A stretch of 64,000 nt of DNA from contig CAVPYU010000005.1 in NCBI GenBank assembly GCA_963710065.1, positions 491,053-555,052 on the forward strand, read 5' to 3'. How positions within the stretch are numbered: position 1 is the first letter of the stretch; each line of letters starts with the position of its first letter. Below, one piece after another: positions 28,800 through 45,409 of the stretch. The notes beneath the pieces were generated by a model. The model was given only the letters and a program-made list of their open reading frames with translations. It searched no databases and was not told the origin of the DNA. Both the position numbers and the translations under genes were made by a program. Source of the stretch: an uncultured Thermoleophilia bacterium (GTDB taxonomy: Bacteria; Actinomycetota; Thermoleophilia; Solirubrobacterales; CAVPYU01).

Positions 28800-30590
28800 C
28801 TACTTCTTCGATTTGGGGAAGAACTTTGCGACGACTGGCCGCTCCCCAACCGACGCCGGTTTGTCGAGAATCTTCTTCTTCACCGGGTTGACCATCCAAA
28901 GCTTTTTGTTGGCGATGTCTGTAACAAATACAGCGCCGGTGCTTGCATCGAATGAGATACTCCTCAGGCTTACCTTCTTCAGGCTGCCGGCACCGACAGC
29001 CTTCATCCTCTTCTTTGTCCAGCGGAATGTGGACATGACCTTTTTGGTCTTCGTGTTAATAACAGATACCGATCGTGAGCCCTCATTGACTACGTAGAGG
29101 CGATAACCGCTCTTCGACAGCGTTGCTGCCGTTGGTTTTTTGCCTACCTTGACTGTTTTTACAACCGTGTCGTCATCCGTGTTAACGATCGTGACCGATC
29201 CCGAGTCCCTGTTTGTCACGTATGCCAAAGAGTCGTTGCCCAGAACGGTCGCAGGCGATGAGCCGACTGCAATCTGACCGACTTTCTGCTTAGTTGTAAG
29301 ATCCACAATCGCCAACTCGCCTGACTCGGCAAGCGCTACGTAAGCCTTGGTCTTGTCCACGATGAACGCTCCGGTCGGTGATGCCCCAACCTCGATCGTT
29401 GCCATGTTCGACCCAAGCCCCTTCGAGCCACCGCTCGGGTTCAACAACGTGACTGTACCTGCTTCTGTATTGCTGACCAACATGCGCTTCCCGTTCGGTG
29501 CCAGAGAGATGTTTGTCGGCCCTTTTCCGACGTCGATCGTGTTAATAACTTTTCCAGAAGACAGCTTCACTACGGAGACCGAATCAGATCCAGTGTTAAC
29601 CACGTACGCCTTCGATCCCTTACGTGAGAAAGTCATATCGGAAGGGTCTTTGCCAACTTCCGCCGAGGATCCCGCGCCTTTTCCGGACACTGCTCCAACC
29701 TCTTGGATAGAACCGGTTCCGCTCTTTGCTGTGCGCAGGACAACGACCTCTGGATCCGGACCCGGTTCCGTCGGACTTCCAGCTCCAGATGATGTTCCGC
29801 CGGCAACGCTATCGGCCGGTGTCGGGGATGGGGTGGGTGTCGAGGGTGCCGGACTGGGTGTTGATGAAACCGGTGGAGAAGGTGAACTACCGAACGAGTC
29901 CCCAGTGCCAGATGGAGGGAAATCGGAATCAAAACCTGAGCTTGATCCTGAACTTGAGCCTGAGCTCGAACCTGAGCCTAGGCCAGGGTCGGGAGCGAAA
30001 CTGGAGCCCGCACCGGCGCCGGCACTCGAGCCGGACTCTGATCCGGAACTCGATGAGCCCGCTGTGTCGTCCGCGCTGTCAGTACCTAAAAGCGCACGCA
30101 GCTCTTCGGTATCTGATTTCTCCTCAGACCCTCCAGTACCAAGCAGCGCACGCAGTTCCTCTACATCGGACTTCTCCGCACCGGCAGCGCTACCGGACTG
30201 GTTGGCGCCGGCCTTCGACTGCCCGCTACTTCCTGCCTCAGGGGTAACCGCCCCGGCAATCAGTATCGCCAACCCGATCACTATGCCGGTCATGTTGTAG
30301 ACGATCGCGTCAGAAAATCGCAGTCCCTTGAAAAACGTCCTAGCTTTGGCGTCAAATGCGACTGCGCCAACGCTGAAGTTGTAAAGGAAACCCTTTTTGA
30401 CGGGCTTTGGTTGACCATCAACCGTGGGAAGTCCCACAGCCTGAGCAGCCACCCTGCCGTTGCCGTTGCCTCTGCCGTTGGTCAATCCGGGCTTAGCAAC
30501 AGGCGTCGTGACAGGCAAACGGATCGGAACCTTGTCCGGTTCCTTGACCGGCGCTTTGCCCTTCTTTTCTGTTGGCTTCAGCAGAAGCAC
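28800..30590 (-). CDS. Membrane-anchored YVTN-type beta-propeller repeat protein
   Basis: 596 aa with a GTG start. It has a basic N-terminus, one TM (IVYNMTGIVIGLAILIAGAV) and a Ser/Gly/Pro low-complexity linker. Repeated ~40-aa units follow (KAYVVNTGSDSVSVVKLSSGKVINTIDVGKGPTNISLAPNGKRMLVSN...). Confidence 0.85.
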   Translation of the reverse strand: MLLLKPTEKKGKAPVKEPDKVPIRLPVTTPVAKPGLTNGRGNGNGRVAAQAVGLPTVDGQPKPVKKGFLYNFSVGAVAFDAKARTFFKGLRFSDAIVYNMTGIVIGLAILIAGAVTPEAGSSGQSKAGANQSGSAAGAEKSDVEELRALLGTGGSEEKSDTEELRALLGTDSADDTAGSSSSGSESGSSAGAGAGSSFAPDPGLGSGSSSGSSSGSSSGFDSDFPPSGTGDSFGSSPSPPVSSTPSPAPSTPTPSPTPADSVAGGTSSGAGSPTEPGPDPEVVVLRTAKSGTGSIQEVGAVSGKGAGSSAEVGKDPSDMTFSRKGSKAYVVNTGSDSVSVVKLSSGKVINTIDVGKGPTNISLAPNGKRMLVSNTEAGTVTLLNPSGGSKGLGSNMATIEVGASPTGAFIVDKTKAYVALAESGELAIVDLTTKQKVGQIAVGSSPATVLGNDSLAYVTNRDSGSVTIVNTDDDTVVKTVKVGKKPTAATLSKSGYRLYVVNEGSRSVSVINTKTKKVMSTFRWTKKRMKAVGAGSLKKVSLRSISFDASTGAVFVTDIANKKLWMVNPVKKKILDKPASVGERPVVAKFFPKSKK

Positions 30591-30949: not shown

Positions 30950-31276
30950 TTATTCAAGCTCAAGAGCGATCTTAATTCTATTTGAAAGTTCATTCAGCTT
31001 AACTGTGCCGAGGCTTCCATACTGCTTACCTAAACGAGTCTTTTCAATCGTCAGTATGTTGTCACAGTTCGCAACACTTTCAATTTTCATACCTTCATCT
31101 TTGCCTATCAACAACTCAGCCACATGTCCTCTTATTTTGCTAGTGACTGGGACAACGGTTACGGATTTGAGCACTGGAATAGCAGTGTTTCGCGTCAAAA
31201 TGACAACCGGCCGCTTAGCATGTTGATCTAGGTCTGCAAGGAAGACGTCTCCTCTTTTGCAAGGTTCATGCGTCAT
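30950..31276 (-). CDS. PemK/MazF-family toxin
   Basis: 108 aa from ATG 31276. KRGDVFLADLD...KRPVVILTRN...VTVVPVTSKIRG...SVANCDNILTIEKTRL fits the PemK/MazF fold pattern. The longer track ORF (to 31396) overlaps the antitoxin. Confidence 0.8.
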   Translation of the reverse strand: MTHEPCKRGDVFLADLDQHAKRPVVILTRNTAIPVLKSVTVVPVTSKIRGHVAELLIGKDEGMKIESVANCDNILTIEKTRLGKQYGSLGTVKLNELSNRIKIALELE

Positions 31277-31505
31277 CGAAAATGTCACCCAACAGACTGG
31301 CGCCATCAATGAAGTCCGATTGATCATCATCGCTGTAGGCTTTCTTGTAAGACTCAGCGATTGCTCTTTCTCTCTCCTGCGCAATCTTCTCCACAATAGA
31401 TAGCCTCAGGGCCTCGGCTCTGTTCTTAAATACGCCCCTCTCTACCAGTAAATCAAGAGCCTTCGCATCCTTGTCTTCTAATCGAGCTGATATCGGTACA
31501 GTCAT
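31266..31505 (-). CDS. Ribbon-helix-helix antitoxin
   Basis: 79 aa from ATG 31505. MTVPISARLEDKDAKALDLLVERGVFKNRAEALRLSIVEKI is RHH-like, with an acidic C-terminal tail. It overlaps the toxin start by 11 nt. Confidence 0.7.
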   Translation of the reverse strand: MTVPISARLEDKDAKALDLLVERGVFKNRAEALRLSIVEKIAQERERAIAESYKKAYSDDDQSDFIDGASLLGDIFDDA

Positions 31506-31901: not shown

Positions 31902-34478
31902 CTATTTCACGCGCACTCTTCGAGTCCGCTTCGACGCCTCGAACACATCGTTCCCCCTGAACTTGGCAACGACCTTGTAGCGACCACGTGTGGGGACGGT
32001 GAGGGTCTTTCTGAACTGTTGCTTCTTGATCTTCGCGTATGTTTTAGTGGCTTTCTTGATCTTCCGTCTCAGCTTCTTCGAGCGGGGCTTTTTGCCGTAG
32101 AACTTGGCAGTGATGCGTACCTTGCCTGCAACACCCTTGGTGATTGTGCCTCTGACCGTGATCTTGCGGCCTCTGCGCTTGATGCGAAGCTTGCCGACTC
32201 TCGATCTCTTCTTCGGCTCAGGATCAACAGTGACTCCCAAGACTGTGAAGCTGGCTGCACGGGTGTTTATGTGGCCGGCTGTGTCTGAGACAGACACAGA
32301 GACCGTGTGGCTTCCAGGTGCGAGGCCGGATATAGAGATAACGTCACCCGTGAAGCTGTGTACTGCTCCCCCGTCTATCGAGTACGTCCGTGATGCCACT
32401 CCAGAAGTTACATCAGACGCAGCTACCCATATGGATATCGTCTGGCCGAAGGCCGAGGTGGGCAGGGCATAGAGCGACAGTGCCGGCGCTTGAGTGTCGA
32501 TCGTGGTGGTAGAGCTTTCTGACCATTCACCTGTGTTTCCCAGGTCGTCGGTTGCCCGTGAGCGGAAGCGGTAGCTTACGCCCTCCACTCCGGTGAAGGT
32601 GAAGGAGTCCTGTCCTGCGCTCAGGGTTGTATGTGGTGACCAGGCGCCGAAGTTTGCGCTCACCTCGACCTCTGTCTGGTTTACTCCTGTGCCCGATCCG
32701 TCGCTTGAGGCAAGGGGAACGGTGACAGGATTCGAGTTAGCGTAGGTGCCGAGAGAGCCAAAAGAGGTTGTGGGCCCGGTTGAGTCGACCAAGAGCGATA
32801 GGTTTTTGCTCGACGACCAAGTCTCACCGAAAGATGATCCCTGAGCGTCGATAGTTATCTGTTTGAGGCCGTCTGTTGTGCCCTGTACGGTCCATTGGGC
32901 CTGGGCCGAGTCATTTGGCCCCAGGGTGCCCAACGGTTGAGGGTCGCTGCCTCCGGTCAGCGTAACGCCCGATGGAAGGTCTATGTCGGCTGTGACCGCC
33001 CCCGCGGTTAAGTCGTTAGAGGTGTTTTCGATGTCAGACGTGATGGTGACGTCGGTTGCCTGCTGTGCCTCGGTAGCTCCCTGTGCCACTGCCTGATCGA
33101 CTGTTGGTGCATCTAACTCGGTGAGGTCTTTTGAAGCAGCTATCGCGTAAGGCTGCGTTGAGGCTCCCTGTACGGAGCTGGCGGCCTTTACCTTGTATAT
33201 GGCGTTCTCTGTGTTAGGCGAGGTCACCTGCTCTACGTTGTTGTCAGACGTGCTTGATGTGTCTCTCTGTGCCTGGCCTGTCGAGTACTGGGTTAGGTCG
33301 AGGTTGGTTAGTGGGTAGATGGTTTTGGGGGTCTGTGCGTTTGGAGGTATCGAGTCAAATACGACCCTTCTGTGCCAGGTGATCGTCGCCCTGTCGCCTA
33401 CTGCGAGGTTCGCCGAGTAGAACTTCGACTGACCTTCTGCGATCGTGCCCGTTGCGTAGTTGTCTTTTTGCAGGTATGCGGTGTCCATAGCCAGCTGACC
33501 CCAGCCGGCGTCTGCCTGCCAGGTGGTCTGTGCACCGATGCCATCGGCAGAGTTGATGAGTATCGCTTTCTGGGCTTTGTAGTCGGTTATGCCTGCGCCT
33601 GCAAGAATCACCAGGGCGCCGGCGCCCATCGGGGCGGAGAGGGATGTGCCGCTTGCACCGTGCGCCTCGTCAGGACAGCCTGGAGAAGAACACTGGTAGT
33701 TTGCAACCGCGAGCGACTCACCGGGCGCAACCAGGTCTGGCTTCTTCCTGTTAGTGCCTATGACCGGACCCCAAGACGACGACTCATAGATCGTATCGTC
33801 TGCCCTCGATGTGGTCTCTTCATCATCAGTAGCACCCATGCAGAGGGTGTTGTAGCTGTTGCAGAACTCTGTGGTCGTCTCGGCACCTGGGCCTTCATTC
33901 CCAGCAGCTGCTGATATACCTACTCCGTAGATGCTTATAAGGGAGTCGAACCAGAGATCTGCTGGATCTTCAATAGTTGCTGAATTACCAGCTGCCCAAC
34001 TCAGAGCCTCAGCTCGGTCATCTTGATCTGCACCTTCAACCAAAGGCCCACTACCCCAATTGCAACGGTGATCAATCCCTAGGCTCCATAACTCCTCACT
34101 TGCACTACCACCCGGACACAAGGCGGCAAAGTTATCCGCATCAAGAACCTTTTCAACCCCGTATGCGATACCTCTGTATATTTCGTTTGGATCGTTACCG
34201 ACCGCAACCGAAGTAACCGATGTTCCGTGGTTCATGCCTGTCGGCAACTGCCCAGGCGGCTCTACAAAGTTGACCCCCGCAAGCCACGGGTGGTTGTGGT
34301 TTGAATAGTCCTCAAGTATCCCAATATCTGCGGTGCCACCTGTATACCCATTACCCCACCAAGACCCCGGTAGACCGACGCCCGTCGAAGGTACCCCTAC
34401 GTTGATGGCAGAAGCAGGGGCAGAGGCCACCAGAGCGGTAGCCAAAACCGCAGCAGCTATATGCCGGAACCTCCTCAT
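31902..34478 (-). CDS. Secreted subtilisin-like (S8) serine protease with Ig-like domains and a very basic C-terminal module
   Basis: 858 aa with signal peptide MRRFRHIAAAVLATALVASAPASA. The catalytic motifs are MNHGTSVTSVAVG (His), AAAGNEGPG (Asn) and ASGTSLSAPMGAGALV (Ser), with Asp probably in IGILEDY. The C-terminus reads KLRIKRRGRKITVRGTI...RGRYKVVAKFRGNDVFEASKRTRRVRVK. Confidence 0.88.
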   Translation of the reverse strand: MRRFRHIAAAVLATALVASAPASAINVGVPSTGVGLPGSWWGNGYTGGTADIGILEDYSNHNHPWLAGVNFVEPPGQLPTGMNHGTSVTSVAVGNDPNEIYRGIAYGVEKVLDADNFAALCPGGSASEELWSLGIDHRCNWGSGPLVEGADQDDRAEALSWAAGNSATIEDPADLWFDSLISIYGVGISAAAGNEGPGAETTTEFCNSYNTLCMGATDDEETTSRADDTIYESSSWGPVIGTNRKKPDLVAPGESLAVANYQCSSPGCPDEAHGASGTSLSAPMGAGALVILAGAGITDYKAQKAILINSADGIGAQTTWQADAGWGQLAMDTAYLQKDNYATGTIAEGQSKFYSANLAVGDRATITWHRRVVFDSIPPNAQTPKTIYPLTNLDLTQYSTGQAQRDTSSTSDNNVEQVTSPNTENAIYKVKAASSVQGASTQPYAIAASKDLTELDAPTVDQAVAQGATEAQQATDVTITSDIENTSNDLTAGAVTADIDLPSGVTLTGGSDPQPLGTLGPNDSAQAQWTVQGTTDGLKQITIDAQGSSFGETWSSSKNLSLLVDSTGPTTSFGSLGTYANSNPVTVPLASSDGSGTGVNQTEVEVSANFGAWSPHTTLSAGQDSFTFTGVEGVSYRFRSRATDDLGNTGEWSESSTTTIDTQAPALSLYALPTSAFGQTISIWVAASDVTSGVASRTYSIDGGAVHSFTGDVISISGLAPGSHTVSVSVSDTAGHINTRAASFTVLGVTVDPEPKKRSRVGKLRIKRRGRKITVRGTITKGVAGKVRITAKFYGKKPRSKKLRRKIKKATKTYAKIKKQQFRKTLTVPTRGRYKVVAKFRGNDVFEASKRTRRVRVK

Positions 34479-34646: not shown

Positions 34647-36326
34647 TTATCTACGTTTTTTAGCTCGTTTACTAGCTCGCCGAGCCGGTTTTTTTAGCCA
34701 CACTTTCAGGCGTTGATGACCGCTACTGCCAACATGCGGCACCGCACTCTTTACCTGCAACCTTAGGCGTCTGCGCTTTTTAAGAACACGTTTTAACACA
34801 CGGTAACCTCGATGTGAGAACTTTAACGTGACCTTCGTTGGATGGTTTCGTCTTAAATTTCTGGTGGTTAGGCTGATCCATATCTTTTGTGTTCGCTTCG
34901 GGTGTTTACGGTTTCCCTTGGCGGACTTGCCTTTTTTCCAACGTTGTGAAAATACGACCTTCCCGCTGAACTCCACAGTGCAATTCCTGGAACATTCCGC
35001 GATTAATTTCACACCGCGCTTTGAAAGCCTCTGATTTTTCCTACCACTCAGCTTCAAAGATACTGTGGGTTGTTGCCAAGACTGTCCTGAAGACGCACAG
35101 CACAAATTCGATGGTGCCCAGCTAGGAGGACTTTCGTCGAAGTCACTTCCCACGAAGCCAACATAAAGAAATCTACTGTCGGGGCTGAACGCAATAGATC
35201 CGCCGTATCGAGCGGTCTGCCTTGTACTTGATGTAACCGTAAGATCACCGCTCACATCGTTTCGATTGAACATCCAAATGTTGTTGGCGTCTTCGTAAAC
35301 CACTACGGCCACTCTAGACCCATTCGGCGCGACGGCAAGACCTTCGGGACTCATCCCAACTGTTAACGGTGAACTAGCAAGCTCTGTGAGCTGTCCCGTT
35401 ACTCCATCAACGTTGTACGCAGAGACGCTTCCTTCTGTAAAGGACACGAAGTTACCCACATAAAGATGTTTGCCATCTGGTGATATATCGATCGTTTGTG
35501 GTCCATGGTCGCCACCGCCACTTTCGTACGGAGAACCTGCTACTTCTGTCAGGAGCCCAGTGGACTGGTCCACATCGTAGGCTGATATGTTGCTTGAGTT
35601 CCAATTAGCGGTGTAGAGGTGCTTTCCATCCGGGCTTAACACAAGATCCCACGACCCAGTCGCTGCAGGTGTCGAAACCGGTGAGCCAGGAACTTCATCA
35701 AGCTGACCGGTCGACTGGTTTACGTTAAATATCGAGATGCTCTTTGAGTAGGAGTTAGTCACATAAACGCGATCTCCACCTGGTGCTACTGCGACACCGC
35801 GAGGACGCTGCTCTGTGTCATATGGAGAATCACCTACTTGCGCTAGCGCTCCCGAGCTATCGTTAATTGAGTAGACGACTAGCTTGTGATTGAAGTGGTC
35901 TGCCGCGAAAAGAAACTTCCCGTCAGGAGTAGTATCGAGTGCAATTGTTCGTGAATCTGGGTTAAAGGGTGATCCCAGTATTGGAAAAATCTGACCCGAC
36001 GATCCATCTGCCGTAAACCCATAGGCTCCCGCAGGGGATCCATAGGTCGTACCGCCCAGAAAAAGGTACCGACCGTCGGGAGTTACGGTGGCACCTTCAT
36101 TGTGGGCCTTGGAGTTCCATGGACTGCCTGTAACCGGTGAAAGTTCACCGCCTGGCTCACCTATCGCAAATCCAGCCACTGTCGCAGTGCTCGTTGCGGG
36201 GAGCATCGTATGACTGGTAACGGCAAATGCCAGAGCTAGGATCAAACACAAGACTCTCCTATCTCTTGAAAGCAACAAGATGAATTTCACTAAACCGGTC
36301 TTCAACATAGTTGTTCTACTTATCAC
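34647..36326 (-). CDS. Secreted lactonase-type 7-bladed beta-propeller protein with a basic C-terminal module
   Basis: Repeated blade motifs are present (DGRYLFLGG, DGKFLFAADHFNHKLVVYSI, GGDRVYVTNSYSKSISIFNV, DGKHLYTANWNSSNISAYDV, DGKHLYVGNF...SVSAYNV). The C-terminal ~150 aa are Lys/Arg-rich (KVTLKFSHRGYRVLKRVLKKRRRLRLQVKS). The start is taken as GTG 36326, 9 nt after GGAGG; TTG 36344 and ATG 36308 are alternatives. Confidence 0.8.
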   Translation of the reverse strand: MISRTTMLKTGLVKFILLLSRDRRVLCLILALAFAVTSHTMLPATSTATVAGFAIGEPGGELSPVTGSPWNSKAHNEGATVTPDGRYLFLGGTTYGSPAGAYGFTADGSSGQIFPILGSPFNPDSRTIALDTTPDGKFLFAADHFNHKLVVYSINDSSGALAQVGDSPYDTEQRPRGVAVAPGGDRVYVTNSYSKSISIFNVNQSTGQLDEVPGSPVSTPAATGSWDLVLSPDGKHLYTANWNSSNISAYDVDQSTGLLTEVAGSPYESGGGDHGPQTIDISPDGKHLYVGNFVSFTEGSVSAYNVDGVTGQLTELASSPLTVGMSPEGLAVAPNGSRVAVVVYEDANNIWMFNRNDVSGDLTVTSSTRQTARYGGSIAFSPDSRFLYVGFVGSDFDESPPSWAPSNLCCASSGQSWQQPTVSLKLSGRKNQRLSKRGVKLIAECSRNCTVEFSGKVVFSQRWKKGKSAKGNRKHPKRTQKIWISLTTRNLRRNHPTKVTLKFSHRGYRVLKRVLKKRRRLRLQVKSAVPHVGSSGHQRLKVWLKKPARRASKRAKKRR

Positions 36327-36345
36327 TGCTTTTCGCCTCCACAAT

Positions 36346-36472: not shown

Positions 36473-38677
36473 TCACTTACGTGGATAGACGACCACCGAG
36501 CGTGACGGTGAGGTCACGGTCGAGTACGACCAACCCGACTCTGCCGGTATCTTGACCCTGAACTTGATCCTCTGTTTGTAGGCGATGAACTTGAACTTGT
36601 GGGAAGTCTTGAAGCGGCCGCGCTTACCTTTAGTTCGGATCGTACGGAAGGTCTGCCACCGAGCCCTCTTTCCCGACCGGTTTCTGAATTGCAGCTCGAC
36701 TATCTTGCCGCGCTTCGGGGTGTCTTGTCACCCTGGTGATAGACACGCCCCGAGATTCGCACCCTCCTGCCGTTCGGCAGGTTCCTCGGCCTCAACTTAA
36801 AGCCGACCCTGCTCTTGACGAAAAGCGTTATCGCCCGCGACTCCGCCCTTCTCCTGGTCGGTGAGCCGTCGTAGAAGGCCTTGACATGCCTGCCGCCGCC
36901 TCTCGGCAACCGGTAGCTAAACAGTCCGCTCTCCGTCGTCTTTACCTCTCCAACTAGCCTGTATTCGCGGTCGCCGGAGGATTCAGCCATCGACGACGTG
37001 CCGATCTTGATCCTTGCATCAGGCACCCCCTTACCCGATCTCTCGACCAGGCGGCCGTGTACCTGTACGCGCTCTCCGTATCCCACCTGGAGCAGATTGG
37101 TATAGATGCCGGCACCACCCCTTGTCTTTTTCTTCTCACTCTTTTTCCTACCGCAGACCCTCACCGTCACCCCGTCCTTGCGAATGCTCTTGCAGCGCTT
37201 CTTCTTCCTGCTCTTGTCGGCGGCCTCTGCAATACCTAGATCAAATGTCGCCTTGCTTGACCTCTTTCTGCTGCCTTTTTTCTTTACCCCGTAGCCACAG
37301 TGCTTACCGATCCTTCTCTCATACCTGCGCATCGATCTTTCTTGGCGTTTTGTGCCGGCGCTCTGGTGCCTCTCTTGCGCTTTTAGCTTCCTGTCGCGCG
37401 CTTTACGGTAGCCAGACTTCGCCCTCTTGCAGGCAGGGTTCGCACTCGGCCTCTCGAAGAATATCCCCGCATCGCCACCGTATTTGAAAGTACGAGCCGA
37501 ACTTGATCGGGGTGAGCGCTGTGTACTTGTTGCCCTCTGTGTCCAGGTCGCTCGAGCCTACGTTTGCCTACATTGTCCTCACCTGTCGCCAGGTACTCGA
37601 CCTTCTTGTCCTCAGGTATTGAGTCGTCGTCAATGTGGGCAACAAGCTCGTCTGACGCTGCAACATACTCAGTCGCCATAGCTTTCCACTTAGCAGTATC
37701 TTCAACCCTCCAGTAGAGCTTTCCGGTCTTAAAACCGGAGTGCTCATCGACTGCCTTTGCCCGCACCTCCGTCGGGTCGTCGGGGTTCTTTGGCTTTGAC
37801 GAAGCCCAGTGTCGGCGGCTTGCTGTCGACACGAACTGACAAGTTCTGTCTGGTCACCTCTGTTGCCTGCGACGTCCTGTCGCGTATGTCTTCAACGTGT
37901 GCATACCTGTCTCGATAGAAGTCGATCGACTCGGTCGTGCCCTGTGCAACCTGTGTCGAGCCACCATCCACCGAGTACATCAGGCCGGACCCTGTCTCCT
38001 GGGGGTCGACCCCCGAGTAGCTGTCTGATGCAGTCAGGCCGATCGTTACCGGGCCTTTTTGCCAGCTGTCTGTATGCCCTGTCACATCTACCGTTGGCTT
38101 TGTCTGGTCGACCTTTATCAACTCACTGTTTACCGGTCCGGGAACACCTGCGCCGCTGATCGCCCTTACATGTATGTAGCTCTCGCCTTCAGATACTGAA
38201 CCGGGTAGTTCGGTGGTCCTGTTATCTTCGCCAGGATGGGTGATCTCCTCGTCGGGATCTCCGTCCGGGTCTTGATCAAAAGCTACCGCGTAGCCGGCAA
38301 TCTCGGATACTGGAATTTCCTCGCTTTTCACCGGCTGCCATTCAACAGCCTCACCAGCACTGACGTACCCGTTAATTGCATCCGGCATAGCATCCCCGGG
38401 CGGCTGATCGTCCCACTTTACTCCTTTCAAAACAGCAGTTGATTCAGGTTGATTCCCAGCCTCATCTCGTAACCACACGGTAATAGTGTGGTTCGCCTGA
38501 GAACCACATCGCAGGTTGTTTAGTTCATGGAGTTTGCCCCTTCAATTGCGTCCACGGATCCCGCCACCCCAACGCTGATAACCGCCGAAATTGGTGATCC
38601 GTTACCTTGACTTGGGTTATCCCACGATAGTCGAATGACGAATGCTGTGCCACCCTGTCACCGCCTGCGACCGTCAT
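36473..38677 (-). pseudogene. About 735-codon Ig-like-repeat surface protein gene broken by at least six frameshifts
   Basis: Its ATG 38677 overlaps the upstream stop (ATGA). The reading frame has to be changed near 38590, 38537-38540 (C4), ~37790, 37563-37565, 37487-37489 and 36717-36720 (G4). With those changes, sensible sequence continues: ...NHTITVWLRDEAGNQ..., DQTKPTVDVTGHTDSWQKGPVTIGLTASDSYSGVDP, ...KPKNPDDPTEVRAKAVDEHSGF..., ...GSSDLDTEGNKYTALTPIKFGSYFKYGGDAGIFFERP..., ...GKIVELQFRNRSGKRARWQTFRTIRTKGKRGRFKTSHKFKFIAYKQRIKFRVKIPAESGWSYSTVTSPSRSVVVYPRK*. Track ORFs 37744-38478, 37383-37832 and 36700-37332 are fragments of it. Confidence 0.7.
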
Positions 38678-39645
38678 GTTTGTAGGTTGTGTCGGAACGT
38701 ATTGTCGCTACAGAACCATCCATCTGTAGTGACTTGCATAGCGTCCGCCACTTCTTGTCCTACTCCTGTAATCATGTGACAGCCGTCTGAGAAGTTTGCT
38801 GTGTTTATTGAGTAGTACTTCCATTGACCTTCGGGGCATGGTGCTAGTGAGTCGTAGTGACCTCCTGAAATATGGCAAGCAGGCCCGTACCACTCTTGGG
38901 TTGCTCCCCCATCGAGGCGCCAACCAATCTGGCGAACGCCGCTACCTGTATCGTGGGCATGCACGAGCATATCCTGAGTACCTTTTACCCAACCTCCATT
39001 GAAAAGAGATCCACTAAGGGGGTCGATCCAGATGTTTGTTCCGTCGTACATTGTGAACTCGAAGTCCGAACCTTCAATTCGTCCCGCAGCGAAAGGGATG
39101 CAGTCGTAGCTGCCAAAGCATCCTGTATGAAATGAGACTTGCACCATATTCATGGCACCGGTGTCGAACCATGTATAGCTCGTGTTTGCATTCGGTGAAA
39201 AAAACCAATCACAACCGCCTACGTTGTCCCAACACCTTGCCATTGACATAATCATGCCGTTAGACCACTTCCGCCCGTGCCCGGTCCATCTGTAAATGGT
39301 CGTATACGGTGGGGCGTTTATGTACCACTGTGCGTACTGGCCTGGCCAATATCCGATATTGGGTATGTACCATCTGAGTCCGGCAGCTCCGGGACAAGCG
39401 GAGTTTTCTGTGCTAAAGGCTCCAGATGGGTTGTATGCCACCCATCCGTGTGCTGCACCATAGCCGTCATGGCATTGCTGAACGGTATAAAAACCGGACG
39501 CTTTAGCAACCTCAACATGAGCAAGAGGTATCCCGCTCGGGACACCAGCAGGCAAAGCAGCGTATGTAGCCAAGACCAGTATCGCCGGTAACACCGCTTT
39601 CAGCAAAAATGATCTTCTTTTCAGATCCAAGTTGCTTGTACTCAT
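38674..39645 (-). CDS. Tat-signal secreted Cys/Trp-rich protein of unknown function
   Basis: ATG 39645 lies 7 nt after GGGGGA. The N-terminus is MSTSNLDLKRRSFLLKAVLPAILVLATYAALPA, with an RR-x-F-L-K twin-arginine motif. The mature part is rich in W, C, G and Y. HAHDTGSGVRQIGWRLDGGATQEW resembles the D-SGV---Y-(V/I)DGG strand seen in the neighbouring Ig-like proteins. Confidence 0.7.
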   Translation of the reverse strand: MSTSNLDLKRRSFLLKAVLPAILVLATYAALPAGVPSGIPLAHVEVAKASGFYTVQQCHDGYGAAHGWVAYNPSGAFSTENSACPGAAGLRWYIPNIGYWPGQYAQWYINAPPYTTIYRWTGHGRKWSNGMIMSMARCWDNVGGCDWFFSPNANTSYTWFDTGAMNMVQVSFHTGCFGSYDCIPFAAGRIEGSDFEFTMYDGTNIWIDPLSGSLFNGGWVKGTQDMLVHAHDTGSGVRQIGWRLDGGATQEWYGPACHISGGHYDSLAPCPEGQWKYYSINTANFSDGCHMITGVGQEVADAMQVTTDGWFCSDNTFRHNLQT

Positions 39646-39752: not shown

Positions 39753-41060
39753 TCAACCCCCCGGCTCCGGCTGGGCGCCCAGGCTGTCGGGGCTGAACTC
39801 GGCGTCTCCGTCTGACTCTGCTGGAGGTTCGGCCTGTGATCCCGAACTTTCTGGCCCCGCGGCTTGCCCGGTGGGCGCTGCGGTTTCATTCGACCGACCT
39901 GCGGCTTGCTTGTCCGTCTTGTTGTCTCTTTTTTCGGCACTGCTCTGAGGCCGTGCGTACGACTTCGTTGGCAGTGCCTGCGAGTCAGGTTTCTGTGATC
40001 CCTGATAACTCGGGCCAATGTTCGTAGGATGTTTCACCCGCTTGGGCTTGGTGTCTATGTTTGCGGCTTTGGTGTTGGTGAACACGTGCTTCACGTCTGG
40101 AACGCCCTGGACCGCTCCGACGACTATGCATGCGGCTGCGGCGCTGCAGGCGGCGGCGATCCTGCCCGGTCCCAACCCGGATGCGCTGGCGCCGGTCGCT
40201 GCTTGGCCGACCGGCTCCGTGCGCCCAAGGATTCCATGCATCACAAGCTTCAGCTTGTCGGCAGACCCAGTGGCCAAATCCGTTACCGAGTGGATCGCAC
40301 CCGACAGTCTCCCAGAGCCGACTCTCCCGCCAAACAAAAGCTGAGCAGGTAGTGCCGCGACTAGCACGGTCCCCACTTCGCCCCGTGCCTTCTCGATGTA
40401 AGCCGTACAGACATCACATATCTCCATGTGCGCTCTTAGCTTGCTGCGTACACGCCGGTCTAGCTTTTTTTCCTCACCGCGTCCAACCCTTGTATCGTGA
40501 GCGTACGCCTCAAGCAAACGCACCTGTTTGTCGCAGATACCTGCATCTTGGTGCATCATGACGTCGCCGATCGCAGAGTTAACGTCTCTTACGACTCGTT
40601 TGACCCTTTGGTGAGCGACACCGGCGATCGATTCGATCTCACCCTCACCGAATCCCTGTTTTGAGAGGCTGAACACGAGTGCTTTCTCATCCGAGATCCT
40701 CGATATCACCTCGAGCCACGCATCGAGTGAAAGCAGTGGCTCTTCAAACGACTCCGCCTTCGCGCTTGAGGTCTTCATCGTTTCTATCGCCGCATCGCGT
40801 CGCTTTTGAGAACGAGCCATATGCGCCGCCTCGGTAAGCGCCATGTAGCAAAGCTTCCTACCAAGATCGTCTACATCTTTTTCCAAGAGGTCCTCTCGCC
40901 CAAGTGCCTTGGTGACCATCTGCTGGTAGGCGTCCTCGGCCCAGCGAGACCCAAACCTTTTGCAGTTCTTCCAGATCAGGCCGTTGTAACGCTCGAGGGC
41001 CTCACTGATCTTCTGGTTGCGAGCCTGTTCCTGTGAATCAAGTGCAACTGCCGAACTCAC
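39753..41060 (-). CDS. Single-polypeptide fusion: ECF-like sigma regions 2 and 4 + zf-HC2 (ZAS-type) anti-sigma motif + TM helix + Pro/Ser/Gln-rich extracytoplasmic tail
   Basis: 435 aa. ERYNGLIWKNCKRFGSRWAEDAYQQMVTKAL is region-2-like. ISDEKALVFSLSKQGFGEGEIESIAGVAHQRVKRVVRDVNSAI is region-4 HTH-like. HMEICDVC matches H-x3-C-x2-C. IAAACSAAAACIVVGAV is hydrophobic. The GTG start overlaps the upstream stop (GTGA). Confidence 0.6.
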   Translation of the reverse strand: MSSAVALDSQEQARNQKISEALERYNGLIWKNCKRFGSRWAEDAYQQMVTKALGREDLLEKDVDDLGRKLCYMALTEAAHMARSQKRRDAAIETMKTSSAKAESFEEPLLSLDAWLEVISRISDEKALVFSLSKQGFGEGEIESIAGVAHQRVKRVVRDVNSAIGDVMMHQDAGICDKQVRLLEAYAHDTRVGRGEEKKLDRRVRSKLRAHMEICDVCTAYIEKARGEVGTVLVAALPAQLLFGGRVGSGRLSGAIHSVTDLATGSADKLKLVMHGILGRTEPVGQAATGASASGLGPGRIAAACSAAAACIVVGAVQGVPDVKHVFTNTKAANIDTKPKRVKHPTNIGPSYQGSQKPDSQALPTKSYARPQSSAEKRDNKTDKQAAGRSNETAAPTGQAAGPESSGSQAEPPAESDGDAEFSPDSLGAQPEPGG

Positions 41061-41338
41061 GACCCACGCCCCCTCGATTCGGCCAGGGCGCTTTTGAGTG
41101 ACCTGTTGGCATCCAGTAGGTCTGTAAACATGTCGAGCTCAGCGCCGTCCAACAGATCCATTGAGAAGAGCTTCCTCAAAAACACCGGCGTCAAGGGCCC
41201 TGATGCCACTGCATCGACTGCCGACTCAAGCCTTTCCAGCGCGGTGGTGACAGCGCACGACACGGGTCTTGCACCACTGCCTTCACCGGTCGAGATGCCG
41301 AAGTTTTCGCCTTCTGCCTGTCCACCGGATTTTCCCAT
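41057..41338 (-). CDS. Hypothetical 93-aa protein, first gene of the sigma-fusion operon
   Basis: This is an ORF only, with a Gly/Glu-rich N-terminus and a helical-looking C-terminal half. It overlaps the next gene by 4 nt. The AGGAGA sits almost directly against the ATG, so the start is uncertain. Confidence 0.4.
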   Translation of the reverse strand: MGKSGGQAEGENFGISTGEGSGARPVSCAVTTALERLESAVDAVASGPLTPVFLRKLFSMDLLDGAELDMFTDLLDANRSLKSALAESRGRGS

Positions 41339-41556
41339 TCTCCTACTAGACGCCCAACAACACTTTTTTTGCCGGACATTTTTGAAATATTTTTTCGGGC
41401 AGCGTGTGTTTTTGCCCCAAAAGAGGCGGCTCCTATATGCTCGTCCACCTTGCGGCCGCCACTAATCATCTTTGGCTACACAGCTTGCCCTTCTACTTGC
41501 ATAAATCGATCTCTATCAGAAGCAAGTTTTAACGCTTTTATTTGAAATCAAGCCAA

Positions 41557-41630
41557 TGCGTCATATGATGACGCATAATAATATACTTTGACACAACGTA
41601 TATTGTGCGTCATACTTCTATCATGACGCG
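41557..41630 (+). promoter_or_regulatory. Two TGCGTCAT/ATGACGC inverted repeats flanking a TTGACA-N17-CATACT promoter; the predicted transcript is leaderless
   Basis: IR1 is TGCGTCAT (41557-64) atg ATGACGCA (41568-75). The -35 box TTGACA is at 41588-93 and the -10 box CATACT at 41611-16. IR2 is TGCGTCAT (41606-13) N9 ATGACGCg (41623-30), and its right half contains the antitoxin ATG 41623. Confidence 0.55.
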
Positions 41631-41877
41631 TACAGCCAGATTCAACTTAGTTCGTGACGACGCTTTGGATAACAAGCTAGAAGCGCTGGCTTCTTATGCA
41701 GAGCGGAACGAGATCAAGACCGACGCAGCACTTTTGCGTGCGATGATCGACGCCGGCTATGACGCATTGCGCAGAAGAGAGCTGAGAGAAGCTTTGACAG
41801 CAAACGCGAAGTATCAAGACGACACGATTGCTGATGAGGCAGCGCTGCTAAACGCATCCGATCTGGAGGGTGAGTGA
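41623..41877 (+). CDS. Putative antitoxin of the second PemK/MazF module
   Basis: 84 aa from ATG 41623 (MTRTARFNLVRDDALDNKLEALASYAERNEI...) with an acidic tail. Its stop overlaps the toxin start by 4 nt. The track ORF starts at GTG 41605. Confidence 0.6.
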   Translation: MTRTARFNLVRDDALDNKLEALASYAERNEIKTDAALLRAMIDAGYDALRRRELREALTANAKYQDDTIADEAALLNASDLEGE

Positions 41878-42224
41878 AAAGGAAACAGCCTGAGGCGGGT
41901 TGCATCTACTACACGGGCGTAGGCTTCAAAGAACGCAAACGTTTGCTAGTCGTATCTAATGACGATCTGAACCTAGACCCGCAGTGGCGAAAAGTCATAT
42001 GTGTATACGTCACAAGCAAGCATGTGCCTGGCGGGCCTTGGGTATCTCTACCGAGCCACGGAAAGAACTCAGTGGCTAACTGCACGGAGTTGTTCACGCT
42101 CGAGAAGAGACGATTGGATCAACAGGTCGGTGAATCTATCGATGCCTCAGAAATGCGAGAGGTATATCGTGGAATTGCTCTGGCATTGGGTGCTGAGGAG
42201 ATGTACCGGGGCCTCTATCGATAA
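41874..42224 (+). CDS. PemK/MazF-family toxin (second copy)
   Basis: 116 aa. GCIYYTG...RKRLLVVSNDDLN...ICVYVTSKH...NSVANCTELFTLEKRRLDQQVG parallels ESVANCDNILTIEKTRLGKQYG in the toxin at 30950-31276. Confidence 0.7.
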   Translation: MKRKQPEAGCIYYTGVGFKERKRLLVVSNDDLNLDPQWRKVICVYVTSKHVPGGPWVSLPSHGKNSVANCTELFTLEKRRLDQQVGESIDASEMREVYRGIALALGAEEMYRGLYR

Positions 42225-43681: not shown

Positions 43682-45409
43682 CTAATCCGAAGAGCCTTTG
43701 ACTACCGACTCACGACCTATCGGTTCTGCGACACCGTGGGGGAACTTTACTTTTCGCCCGTGCTTTGGTGGTCGTTTCTTTCTAAGGAATCCTGCGGTGT
43801 AAAAGTCGATCGCTTCCTCATATGTACGTCGATCCTCATGTCTGTAGTTAAGCTCTGGGTCCTTTTCAAGTGCCTCAACGAGAGCCTCCACATAGCGTTG
43901 TTCAAAGAGCTCCGGCTTGCTTCGCAGCTCAGCGATCGCCTCCTCCCTACTTCGACGACTCTGGTAGGTGTCGCGTGCAGTTATCACGTCGTAGGTGTCG
44001 GCGACCCGAATAATCTTGGCAAGCTGCGGTATCTCATGACCCTGGAACCCGCGCGGGTACCCAGTTCCATCCAAGTTCTCGTGGTGACAACGAATAATCT
44101 GGGCCAGATGCTTGAATCCAGCACCCAGTATTCTGTCGGCTCCTGCATTTGGGTGGTCCTTTATATAGAGACGGTCTACCTCTGTGATCTCATCACGGCC
44201 CTTGGTTCCATCCAGCAGTGGCCCCGGCCAGCTCGTCTTGCCTACATCGTGAACCAGCGCTGCCCTGTACCCGCGGAAACGCTGTTTGGTAGAAAGGCCT
44301 GCAGCGCAAGCAATCTCATGCGTATATAGAGCAACGGCGGCACAGTGGGTGCCTGTACGGTTGTCACGACCATGCAATGCTTGTACGCGAGCAGTCAGTC
44401 TGTCAAAGGCCTCGCACTCTATGGTGACCTTCTTGTTCTGAGCGTGCCAATAGTAGAAGAGAATCCGCAAAAGTCCCAAAGCCATTAGTAAGCAACGCCG
44501 ATGTCCTCGACCAGATGCGTAGTAGCCGTATAGAACACCCATGCCGAGAGCGGCGATCACGATCTCGGCTGGGATGAGGAAGGCGAGCATCTTCGCGCCT
44601 GACCCAAATGGGTATCTGCTCGACCCATGTGTCGATTGTTTCCCGAAGTAAAAAATTGATCGCAAGTACCAAGGCAAAGGCGGCTTGAAAGACCAGGTAA
44701 TACGCAAGGGTCCTGATAGCTAAGTTGAAAGACACCGATGAAATGGTGAAAGAGAAGCCCCGGGATTAGTGCAAACCAGGCCTTGTCTGCGAGGTCGCCG
44801 GCGATGCCCAGCTGGACCGGTCTATTAAAGCCACTCGTTGACCCAGCCGGCTCCGGTGCTTTAATCGGAGCAGCAAACCACCGCCATGTCCCTACGACCA
44901 CCGGCTTTGGTTTCCTTATCGACATCACCCTTCGTAACGCCACATTTACCTTTGTTACTACTACTGACCTCAGACTGGCAATGCGTATCTTTCCCGGTTG
45001 CTCCGGACTACTGTGAAAGCCTGCGCTAGCTGGCTCAAGCAGGCGGAGTAAAATCCTGCGGCGAAGAATGGTGACATGCTTTCCTTCATACCAGCGGTGA
45101 AGCTCTTTGTATACTCGACAAGCGGGTAGTAGAGTTCTCCAATCAAATCGACCGGCACCCGACTACAATCGCGGCGTCAGCGGGTCCAAGCACCACGGCG
45201 GCTATGAAGTATCGCCAAGCGGCAACCCGTCTATGGGCAGATCCTGCTGAACTTCGATCTTCAGGAATCTGGCAAAGACGGCCAGCCAAGCAGTATCACG
45301 AATAATCCCGGCTGCTGTCAAAAGCTTTGACCGCTATCCACTACCAAAGCACAGTACCAGCGCAACCACTACTACGACATTCAATGCATACGCCTGCCTA
45401 TAGTACACT
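43682..45409 (-). pseudogene. Membrane-anchored HD-GYP domain phosphohydrolase gene, N-terminal half broken by at least four frameshifts
   Basis: The intact C-terminal ORF (43682-44707) carries LVHDVGK and CHHENLDGTGYPRGF, the HD-GYP signature. Upstream same-strand fragments (44403-44735, 44557-44943, 44970-45158 and hand-translated pieces up to a GTG at about 45409) encode TM-like segments: SFNLAIRTLAYYLVFQAAFALVLAINFLL, DKAWFALIPGLLFHHFIGVF, IIRDTAWLAVFARFLKIE and ALNVVVVVALVLCFGSG. Confidence 0.6.

Follow-up and report, generated by a model that had tools for sequence, protein, structure and literature searches.

The DNA analysed here, referred to below as the window, is a 64,000-nucleotide (nt) stretch of contig CAVPYU010000005.1 from an uncultured Thermoleophilia bacterium (assembly GCA_963710065.1), and our subject is a gene pair on its minus strand that encodes a putative fusion of a sigma factor with an anti-sigma domain. 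The main gene (39753..41060, minus strand) specifies a protein of 435 amino acids (aa), to which homology, conservation and structure prediction assign an extracytoplasmic function (ECF)-type sigma domain, a zinc anti-sigma (ZAS) domain, a predicted transmembrane (TM) helix and a presumably extracytoplasmic tail. It is preceded by a 93-aa open reading frame (ORF) of unassigned function (41057..41338, minus strand), defined from the ORF list and from a reading of the junction. The two are translationally coupled: in the junction sequence GGG TCG TGA, the GTG start of the 435-aa gene and the TGA stop of the upstream ORF share the 4 nt GTGA, and a Shine-Dalgarno-like GAGGGGG lies 8 nt upstream of this GTG. 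The coupling had been proposed in a preliminary description made from the letters of the window, and the junction sequence bears it out; all peptide segments that were quoted there from the 435-aa ORF are likewise present in its translation.

A search of 5.8 billion clustered proteins returned four matches to the 435-aa protein including itself, the other three being 77%, 58% and 43% identical over the full length. None of these close relatives is named and none carries a Pfam domain, and a scan of GTDB representative genomes found no relative. Comparison with the 77% identical relative (locus L001) gave a ratio of nonsynonymous to synonymous substitution rates (dN/dS) of 0.12 for the 435-aa gene and 0.23 for the 93-aa ORF. 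Broken down by segment, the ratio for the 435-aa gene is 0.09 in the sigma2 part, 0.13 in sigma4, 0.07 in the ZAS domain, 0.11 in the juxtamembrane segment, 0.04 in the TM helix and 0.19 in the tail. Judged by sequence, then, both ORFs are true protein-coding genes under purifying selection and not chance ORFs.

The N-terminal core of the 435-aa protein spans about 165 residues and consists of sigma2-like and sigma4-like domains joined by a linker of about 15 residues; there is no sigma1.1 or sigma3. The sigma2-like domain (residues ~8-95; 40776..41039, minus strand) contains the segments WAEDAYQQMVTKAL, which is region 2.1/2.2-like, and MALTEAAHMARS, which is region 2.3/2.4-like. It has no direct Pfam match and is assigned by profile-profile comparison with hhalign, by invariant residues, by the confidence of the structure prediction and by Foldseek. 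The sigma4-like helix-turn-helix (residues ~110-168; 40557..40733, minus strand) aligns to the Sigma70_r4_2 domains of the proteins P0006 and P0007 and of the sister family A3, all of which are described below.

To place this core we searched 1.84 billion representative proteins by HMMER, using a hidden Markov model (HMM) that was built from alignment A2 and covers residues 1-240. Just three proteins outside the family itself were matched, P0006, P0007 and P0008, with whole-library E-values of 7e-5, 1.7e-4 and 9.3e-4, respectively. P0006 is a stand-alone ECF sigma factor of 173 aa (Pfam Sigma70_r4_2 at 1e-15 and Sigma70_r2 at 3e-4). P0007 (409 aa) has Pfam matches to Sigma70_r2 (4e-9), Sigma70_r4_2 (2.6e-6) and zf-HC2 (1.6e-7), and P0008 (489 aa) has matches to Sigma70_ECF (8e-4) and zf-HC2 (3e-4) that both lie below the Pfam cut-offs. 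Beyond its zf-HC2 region P0008 continues into an Ala/Gly-rich hydrophobic stretch followed by a Pro/Ala-rich tail. In both P0007 and P0008 the order of sigma and zf-HC2 parts is that of the 435-aa protein.

P0007 belongs to a sister family with some 40 members, for which we prepared a 39-member alignment (A3; P0007, P0009-P0047) of proteins of about 400 aa each from uncultured Actinobacteria and Solirubrobacterales. Most members have precomputed matches to Sigma70_r2, Sigma70_r4_2 and/or zf-HC2 (all three in 15/39), and several are named "sigma-70 family RNA polymerase sigma factor" by NCBI and JGI. An hhalign comparison of A2 with A3 gave 97.8% probability and an E-value of 8.6e-13 over 209 columns; the alignment is collinear over residues 8-227, running through sigma2, linker, sigma4 and zinc domain with no rearrangement. 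In a joint alignment of both families (26 sequences), the invariant positions include A41, D43 and Q46 of the A-E-D-x-x-Q signature in region 2.1/2.2, together with E77; L132, I142 and R155 in the sigma4 helix-turn-helix; and G174. The merged profile matches solved structures of ECF sigma factors, Mycobacterium tuberculosis SigE first (4.5e-16), followed by AlgU, CnrH, SigL, RpoE, SigW and SigH, and it matches the ZAS anti-sigma factor RslA weakly. The sister family is therefore anchored among bona fide ECFs. A sequence search of the Protein Data Bank (PDB) with the four-sequence profile of the family returned nothing relevant.

Structure prediction led to the same fold. Our first AlphaFold2 (AF2) run, on the full-length protein with four sequences, was poor, with a mean predicted local distance difference test (pLDDT) score of 49.8, values below 50 after residue 234 and weak Foldseek matches. 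It was replaced by a prediction of the N-terminal part from the 26-sequence alignment, which has a mean pLDDT of 80.7, with 92-98 in sigma2 and 80-95 in sigma4. When this model was compared with the PDB using Foldseek, nearly all of the first ~22 matches were ECF sigma factors (probability 0.85-1.0, E 0.015-0.7). SigL (6dv9_F) came out on top with an E-value of 0.015 and a probability of 1.0, and the other matches included RpoE (1or7), SigH, SigW, AlgU, Bartonella RpoE, BldN and SigG1. Isolated region-4 structures superpose with TM-scores of 0.6-0.76 and a root-mean-square deviation of 1.5-3.2 Å. The preliminary description had read a region-2-like segment and a region-4-like helix-turn-helix from weak motifs, and had named a predicted fold unrelated to sigma factors as the outcome that would speak against it. 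HMM search, hhalign and AF2/Foldseek all support its reading: the folds predicted are those of sigma2 and sigma4, and ECF sigma factors account for almost all of the best PDB matches.

The ZAS-type (class I) anti-sigma domain (residues ~170-228; 40377..40553, minus strand) follows the sigma core after a linker of a few residues and is assigned by its invariant ligands and by alignment to the zf-HC2 domain of A3. It includes the motif HMEICDVC (residues 211-218; 40407-40430, minus strand), that is, H211-x3-C215-x2-C218, which had been recognized early on as a zf-HC2/ZAS signature. That identification stands: the motif aligns to zf-HC2, and each of the putative zinc ligands C176, H211, C215 and C218 is retained in 4/4 close homologues and in 39/39 members of the sister family. 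The upstream C176 aligns exactly with an invariant Cys of the sister family, and together with H-x3-C-x2-C it makes up what is, as far as the alignment can tell, the canonical four-ligand ZAS arrangement; the domain is predicted to bind zinc. The 34 residues between C176 and H211 are explained by a 9-residue insertion that is peculiar to this sub-family in comparison with the sister family. A Cys as the first zinc ligand is also found in RsrA and redox-sensitive ZAS domains of the RsrA type. Among curated models, NCBIfam antisigmaE matches residues 195-223 below its threshold (E 0.0066; 16.2 bits with a cut-off of 50), and Pfam zf-HC2 (PF13490) returns nothing for the window protein and E-values of 0.21-0.35 for the related proteins P0003 and P0004.

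Between the zinc domain and the membrane helix lies a juxtamembrane segment (residues 229-300; 40161..40376, minus strand) with many invariant columns and a low-confidence predicted structure. Its AALPA motif is common to the sister family, AAL-P being conserved in alignments A3 and A4. The single predicted TM helix (residues 301-318; 40107..40160, minus strand) is Ala/Cys-rich and preceded by R300; the hydrophobic stretch IAAACSAAAACIVVGAV corresponds to residues 301-317 (I301-V317). On the Kyte-Doolittle scale with a 19-residue window, hydropathy peaks at 1.89 at residue 310, and this is the sole window above the 1.6 threshold, in keeping with the TM helix originally proposed. The segment is 90% identical to its counterpart in L001 and has invariant cysteines, C305 and C311, within the helix.

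The remaining 117 residues form a low-complexity tail (residues 319-435; 39756..40106, minus strand) that is predicted to be extracytoplasmic. It is rich in A, P, S, G and K, contains no Pfam domain and has pLDDT values below 40, which fits the earlier description of the last ~120 residues as an external tail. Only six of its columns are invariant among the close homologues, T365, G418, E421, F422, A429 and G435, and they define an end motif, G418-x2-E421-F422-...-G435 (39756-39809, minus strand). The window protein ends in AEFSPD...GG. Tails of the sister family cannot be aligned overall and end in GEFGP (12 members), G(G/E/D)LAP or AELLG(G/A/E)G, and P0008 ends in GSEFGVEGG. Such a conserved peptide at the end of a disordered external tether could be a docking site for a partner or a protease.

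We consider it probable, on balance of the above, that the 435-aa protein represents a sigma factor of the ECF type (group 4) in one-component, membrane-tethered form, which carries its ZAS domain in cis and is equipped with a TM helix and an external tail. Several observations weigh against this reading. Searches with Pfam Sigma70_r2/r4/r4_2/ECF and with NCBIfam (TIGR02937) gave no match to the 435-aa protein even at E<=10, and its three close homologues likewise have no match to a curated sigma model. Taken literally, this is the outcome that the preliminary description had named as speaking against a sigma factor, whereas the deeper profile comparison supports one. The W64 and the N of NEAL that are invariant or near-invariant in region 2.3/2.4 of the sister family are K69 and T76 here, a change that could modify or abolish promoter melting or -10 recognition. 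In the AF2 model the zinc domain has a pLDDT of only 56-80. How the domains are oriented towards one another is uncertain, the predicted template modelling score (pTM) being 0.43, and for this reason the Foldseek E-values are weak, at 0.015 or more. A second hydrophobic segment (residues 229-246, Kyte-Doolittle 1.51 centred on residue 238) follows the zinc motif, and the topology is therefore not fully settled. Finally, the presumed partner gene, which encodes a secreted protein with immunoglobulin-like (Ig-like) domains, is an apparent pseudogene in this genome, and our analysis turned up no protease, no target promoter and no -35 element.

The first two of these observations, the silence of the curated sigma HMMs and the replacement of W and N by K69 and T76, would equally fit an N-terminal domain that is a degenerate, ECF-derived decoy and no subunit of RNA polymerase. 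Such a domain could serve as a binding partner of an anti-sigma domain, intra- or intermolecularly and much as in PhyR, or the protein could be a membrane-tethered DNA-binding regulator. The family is indeed tiny and fast-diverging, and the sigma-like domain of PhyR (3t0y) is among the weaker Foldseek matches. However, neither family departs from the core-binding signature A-E-D-x-x-Q in region 2.1/2.2, sigma4 still has its basic recognition helix (K154, R155, R158), both sigma2 and sigma4 are under strong purifying selection (dN/dS 0.09 and 0.13), the best structural matches are true ECF sigma factors, and the protein has no receiver or other output domain. We regard a decoy as quite unlikely.

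A membrane-tethered sigma factor with a fused anti-sigma domain has precedents. In the actinobacterial groups ECF48, ECF52 and ECF53, C-terminal extensions of up to ~400 residues contain a likely ZAS zinc finger and one to two TM helices, and activation by proteolysis is expected (PMC8999054). ECF48 and ECF53 have no experimental characterisation (PMC8999054). In SCO4117, the ECF52 protein of Streptomyces coelicolor, the sigma core is followed by a zinc finger, then by a TM and a Pro-rich region and finally by a carbohydrate-binding module, and a truncated allele supports release of its sigma domain (PMC5826349). Proteolytic release or inactivation of the ZAS domain has been proposed for ECF52, as has autoregulation (PMC5826349; PMC8999054). 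In IutY of Pseudomonas putida (ECF243), a fusion of a sigma factor with a FecR-type anti-sigma moiety, release through regulated intramembrane proteolysis (Prc, RseP) has been demonstrated experimentally, as for no other of these fusions (PMC8999054). Published sigma/anti-sigma fusions thus offer both the architecture of the 435-aa protein and a proteolytic-release model (PMC8999054; PMC5826349; PMC7826278). The preliminary description had presented the fusion as a departure from the rule that sigma and anti-sigma functions reside on separate proteins, and one that would need an unusual activation mechanism. Its suggestion of proteolytic or conformational activation agrees with what is the standard model, but the fusion is not new, given ECF48, ECF52, ECF53 and IutY (PMC8999054; PMC5826349). 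Both the fusion of sigma and anti-sigma parts and the likely logic of its activation are already in the literature, and nothing is overturned by the protein described here.

The 435-aa protein has the layout of the ECF48/52/53 type: a sigma core, a zinc finger, a TM helix, a long Pro-rich extension and an actinobacterial host. By analogy, since layout and host phylum are those of the published fusions, it may well work as they do. In ECF52, as represented by SCO4117, sigma core, ZAS domain, TM region and Pro-rich extension occur in the same order, again in an actinobacterium. The differences are that ECF52 is recognized by TIGR02937 and pfam13490 whereas no curated model fires on the 435-aa protein; that the ECF52 extension ends in a carbohydrate-binding module whereas the tail here (residues 319-435) lacks a Pfam domain and ends in the EF motif; and that the 435-aa gene is preceded by the coupled 93-aa ORF. 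With ECF48 and ECF53 the protein shares, going by their descriptions, the ZAS finger, the TM helix and the long extension. Like IutY it combines a sigma factor with a membrane-spanning anti-sigma moiety; IutY, however, belongs to FecI/FecR-type cell-surface signalling in Proteobacteria, its anti-sigma part is FecR-like and it has no Pro-rich tail. Neither Pfam nor NCBIfam finds a FecR match in the 435-aa protein, the anti-sigma part of which is of the ZAS type.

The two-protein ZAS systems SigR-RsrA, SigL-RslA, SigE-ChrR and SigW-RsiW share with the 435-aa protein the H-x3-C-x2-C motif and an upstream Cys or His ligand, and as in these systems the anti-sigma domain would be expected to lie between the two sigma domains. 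Among the best matches of the structural model are SigL, SigW and RslA-bound sigma4. The difference is that sigma and anti-sigma factors are separate polypeptides in those systems and a single chain here. With the A3 sister family the likeness extends to the domain order, the Cys and His ligands, AAL-P after the ZAS domain, an Ala-rich TM helix and a disordered tail with a terminal acidic-hydrophobic motif, as well as to homologous Big_13 proteins of ~950 aa encoded immediately downstream. Identity between the two families is only ~20%, and A3, in contrast to the family studied here, passes the Pfam thresholds for sigma domains and zf-HC2, lacks the 93-aa upstream ORF and the 9-residue ZAS insertion, and keeps the W and N of region 2.3/2.4. 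What is particular about the present family is its extremely divergent sigma core and tiny phyletic range, with four to six sequences known, as well as the small ORF coupled to the gene, the tail motif and the Ig-like partner genes, one of which has decayed in this genome.

If the protein is the tethered sigma factor that we favour, its activity might be controlled as follows. Following the model of ECF48/52/53 and IutY, the sigma core would be kept inactive in cis by its ZAS domain and membrane anchor. A signal from outside the cytoplasm would act on the tail, possibly through the large Ig-like secreted protein encoded alongside, and regulated proteolysis and/or a thiol or zinc switch in the ZAS domain would then set the sigma core free. 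The freed core would bind RNA polymerase and might transcribe its own operon together with the downstream genes for surface proteins.

A bolder version, which we think rather unlikely, would make the tail a tethered peptide ligand whose end motif is bound by the adjacently encoded Ig-like proteins or by a PDZ-type protease, such that a change in this contact starts the release of the core; the 93-aa protein would add a further regulatory layer, and the -10 recognition region would have been re-tooled. If true, a tethered-ligand tail would be a surface-protein-coupled mode of sensing not described for ECF sigma factors.

An RsrA-like redox or zinc switch could do without proteolysis: thiol oxidation or loss of zinc would free the core while the protein stays anchored and recruits RNA polymerase to the membrane, or else the helix is no true anchor. 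The Cys at the first ligand position (C176), as in ZAS domains of the RsrA type, would suit such a switch, as would the invariance of all four zinc ligands, the further invariant C305 and C311 in the hydrophobic helix, and a helix that is Ala-rich with a hydropathy just moderately above the threshold. However, the conserved TM helix, juxtamembrane segment and tail-end motif argue for sensing on the outside, published relatives of the same layout are modelled as protease-activated (PMC8999054), and redox sensitivity is not readable from sequence; we doubt strongly that the protein works by such a switch alone, and retain the tethered sigma factor with the mode of release outlined above as the preferred reading.

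The case illustrates that some ECF sigma factors escape the standard domain models altogether, and that profile-profile comparison together with structure prediction can recover a one-component signalling protein from such a blind spot. It would extend the class of fused ZAS-type ECFs to Thermoleophilia-like Actinobacteria, where the fusion forms part of a conserved cassette with Ig-like secreted proteins of ~1000 aa. Cassette and tail motif offer concrete handles on how sigma/anti-sigma fusions sense their signals.

A possible promoter of the gene pair carries the sequence GGGCGTCTA (41347..41355, minus strand), a candidate ECF-type -10 element with a CGTC core located 8 nt upstream of the ATG of the small ORF. 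L001/L002 and L083 share the motif GG(G/A)CGTCTA with the window, its spacing to the ATG being unchanged. CGTC is a common core of ECF -10 elements, and leaderless transcripts are frequent in Actinobacteria; the spacing here would give a leaderless or near-leaderless transcript. Comparison of the window with the homologous loci revealed no conserved -35 element upstream of the small ORF, the motif has no second copy before the downstream genes and is not enriched elsewhere in the window, and a scan for sigma-70 consensus promoters and terminators gave nothing above chance. Autoregulation through the CGTCTA element is plausible.

The small ORF directly precedes the sigma gene in L001, L002 and L083 as well, with the 4-nt overlap in the window and in L083 and a 2-nt gap in L001. 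It is missing upstream of the 43% identical relative (L084) and of the sister-family genes examined. Its product has only five matches among the 5.8 billion proteins and no Pfam or NCBIfam match; the C-terminal ~60 residues are conserved and the N-terminal ~30 are variable. We also considered that the ORF could be a detached N-terminal extension that is fused to the sigma factor in relatives, and rejected this on finding no similarity to any fetched protein. Fusion by programmed frameshifting is unlikely because the frame relation differs between loci. The most economical guess is that the 93-aa protein acts as a lineage-specific co-regulator.

Downstream of the sigma-fusion gene lies a frameshifted remnant of a syntenic gene for a secreted Ig-like protein of ~1060 aa (36476..39645, minus strand), which we delimited by tblastn with the intact 1064-aa orthologue of L001. 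This comparison shows at least six frame changes and many stops in the nominal frame. The N-terminus of the remnant, with a twin-arginine-like KRRSFLLKA signal, is contained in a 360-aa ORF. The preliminary description had listed this ORF as a separate gene for a Tat-signal protein, which it is not: it is the first fragment of the frameshifted ~1060-aa gene. As for the long Ig-like gene of the operon that was proposed at the same time, the one meant may have been an intact gene for an 858-aa protein further downstream. Because the flanking genes for the 435-aa, 565-aa and 858-aa proteins are intact, uniform sequencing error is a less likely cause of the frame changes than true decay into a pseudogene or a local problem of assembly.

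In every locus examined, in both families, a gene for a signal-peptide protein directly follows the sigma-fusion gene. The downstream protein is full-length, at ~950-1060 aa, in the contigs of P0002, P0024 and P0015; the contigs of P0003 and P0004 end after 162 and 199 aa of it, respectively, and contain its N-terminus only. By blastp the full-length proteins of the two families are homologous to each other (1e-25 to 1e-37), and the intact ones carry bacterial Ig-like domains (Pfam Big_7 and Big_13).

The intact 858-aa secreted protein (31902..34478, minus strand) is 74% identical to a syntenic 857-aa protein of L001, and its membership of the cassette is uncertain. An 'NHGTSV' motif had made it a candidate for a subtilisin-like site-1 protease, which we dismissed, as it has no match to Pfam Peptidase_S8 and just a weak one to PKD. 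The last ~200 residues of the 857/858-aa protein (window 31902-32516, minus strand) are duplicated, with 54% identity, in a 255-aa protein of L001 (10621-11388), and this points to modular reuse of what may be a distinct C-terminal domain. Between the Ig-like pseudogene and the 858-aa gene the window has a gene for a 565-aa secreted beta-propeller protein of the lactonase/NHL type (34647-36344, minus strand) that is absent from this position in L001; a paralogous gene for a 596-aa propeller protein is found at 28800-30590.

Both flanks of the cassette are occupied by toxin-antitoxin pairs of the PemK/MazF type (30956-31505, minus strand, and 41605-42224, plus strand), one with a ribbon-helix-helix antitoxin and the other with an unassigned 90-aa upstream ORF. 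The homologous loci, too, lie among toxin-antitoxin and abortive-infection-type genes (AbiEi, RES, PIN), and such surroundings suggest a variable genomic region or island. Also near the cassette is a gene for a 341-aa membrane-associated HD/HD_5 (HD-GYP-like) phosphohydrolase (43682-44707, minus strand); a 224-aa ORF that overlaps it on the opposite strand is probably spurious. As for the host, an actinobacterium of the Thermoleophilia/Solirubrobacterales type is indicated by the FtsZ encoded in the window, which has its best matches, at 76% and 73% identity, in two metagenome-assembled genomes of uncultured Solirubrobacteraceae and is 67% identical to that of Patulibacter.

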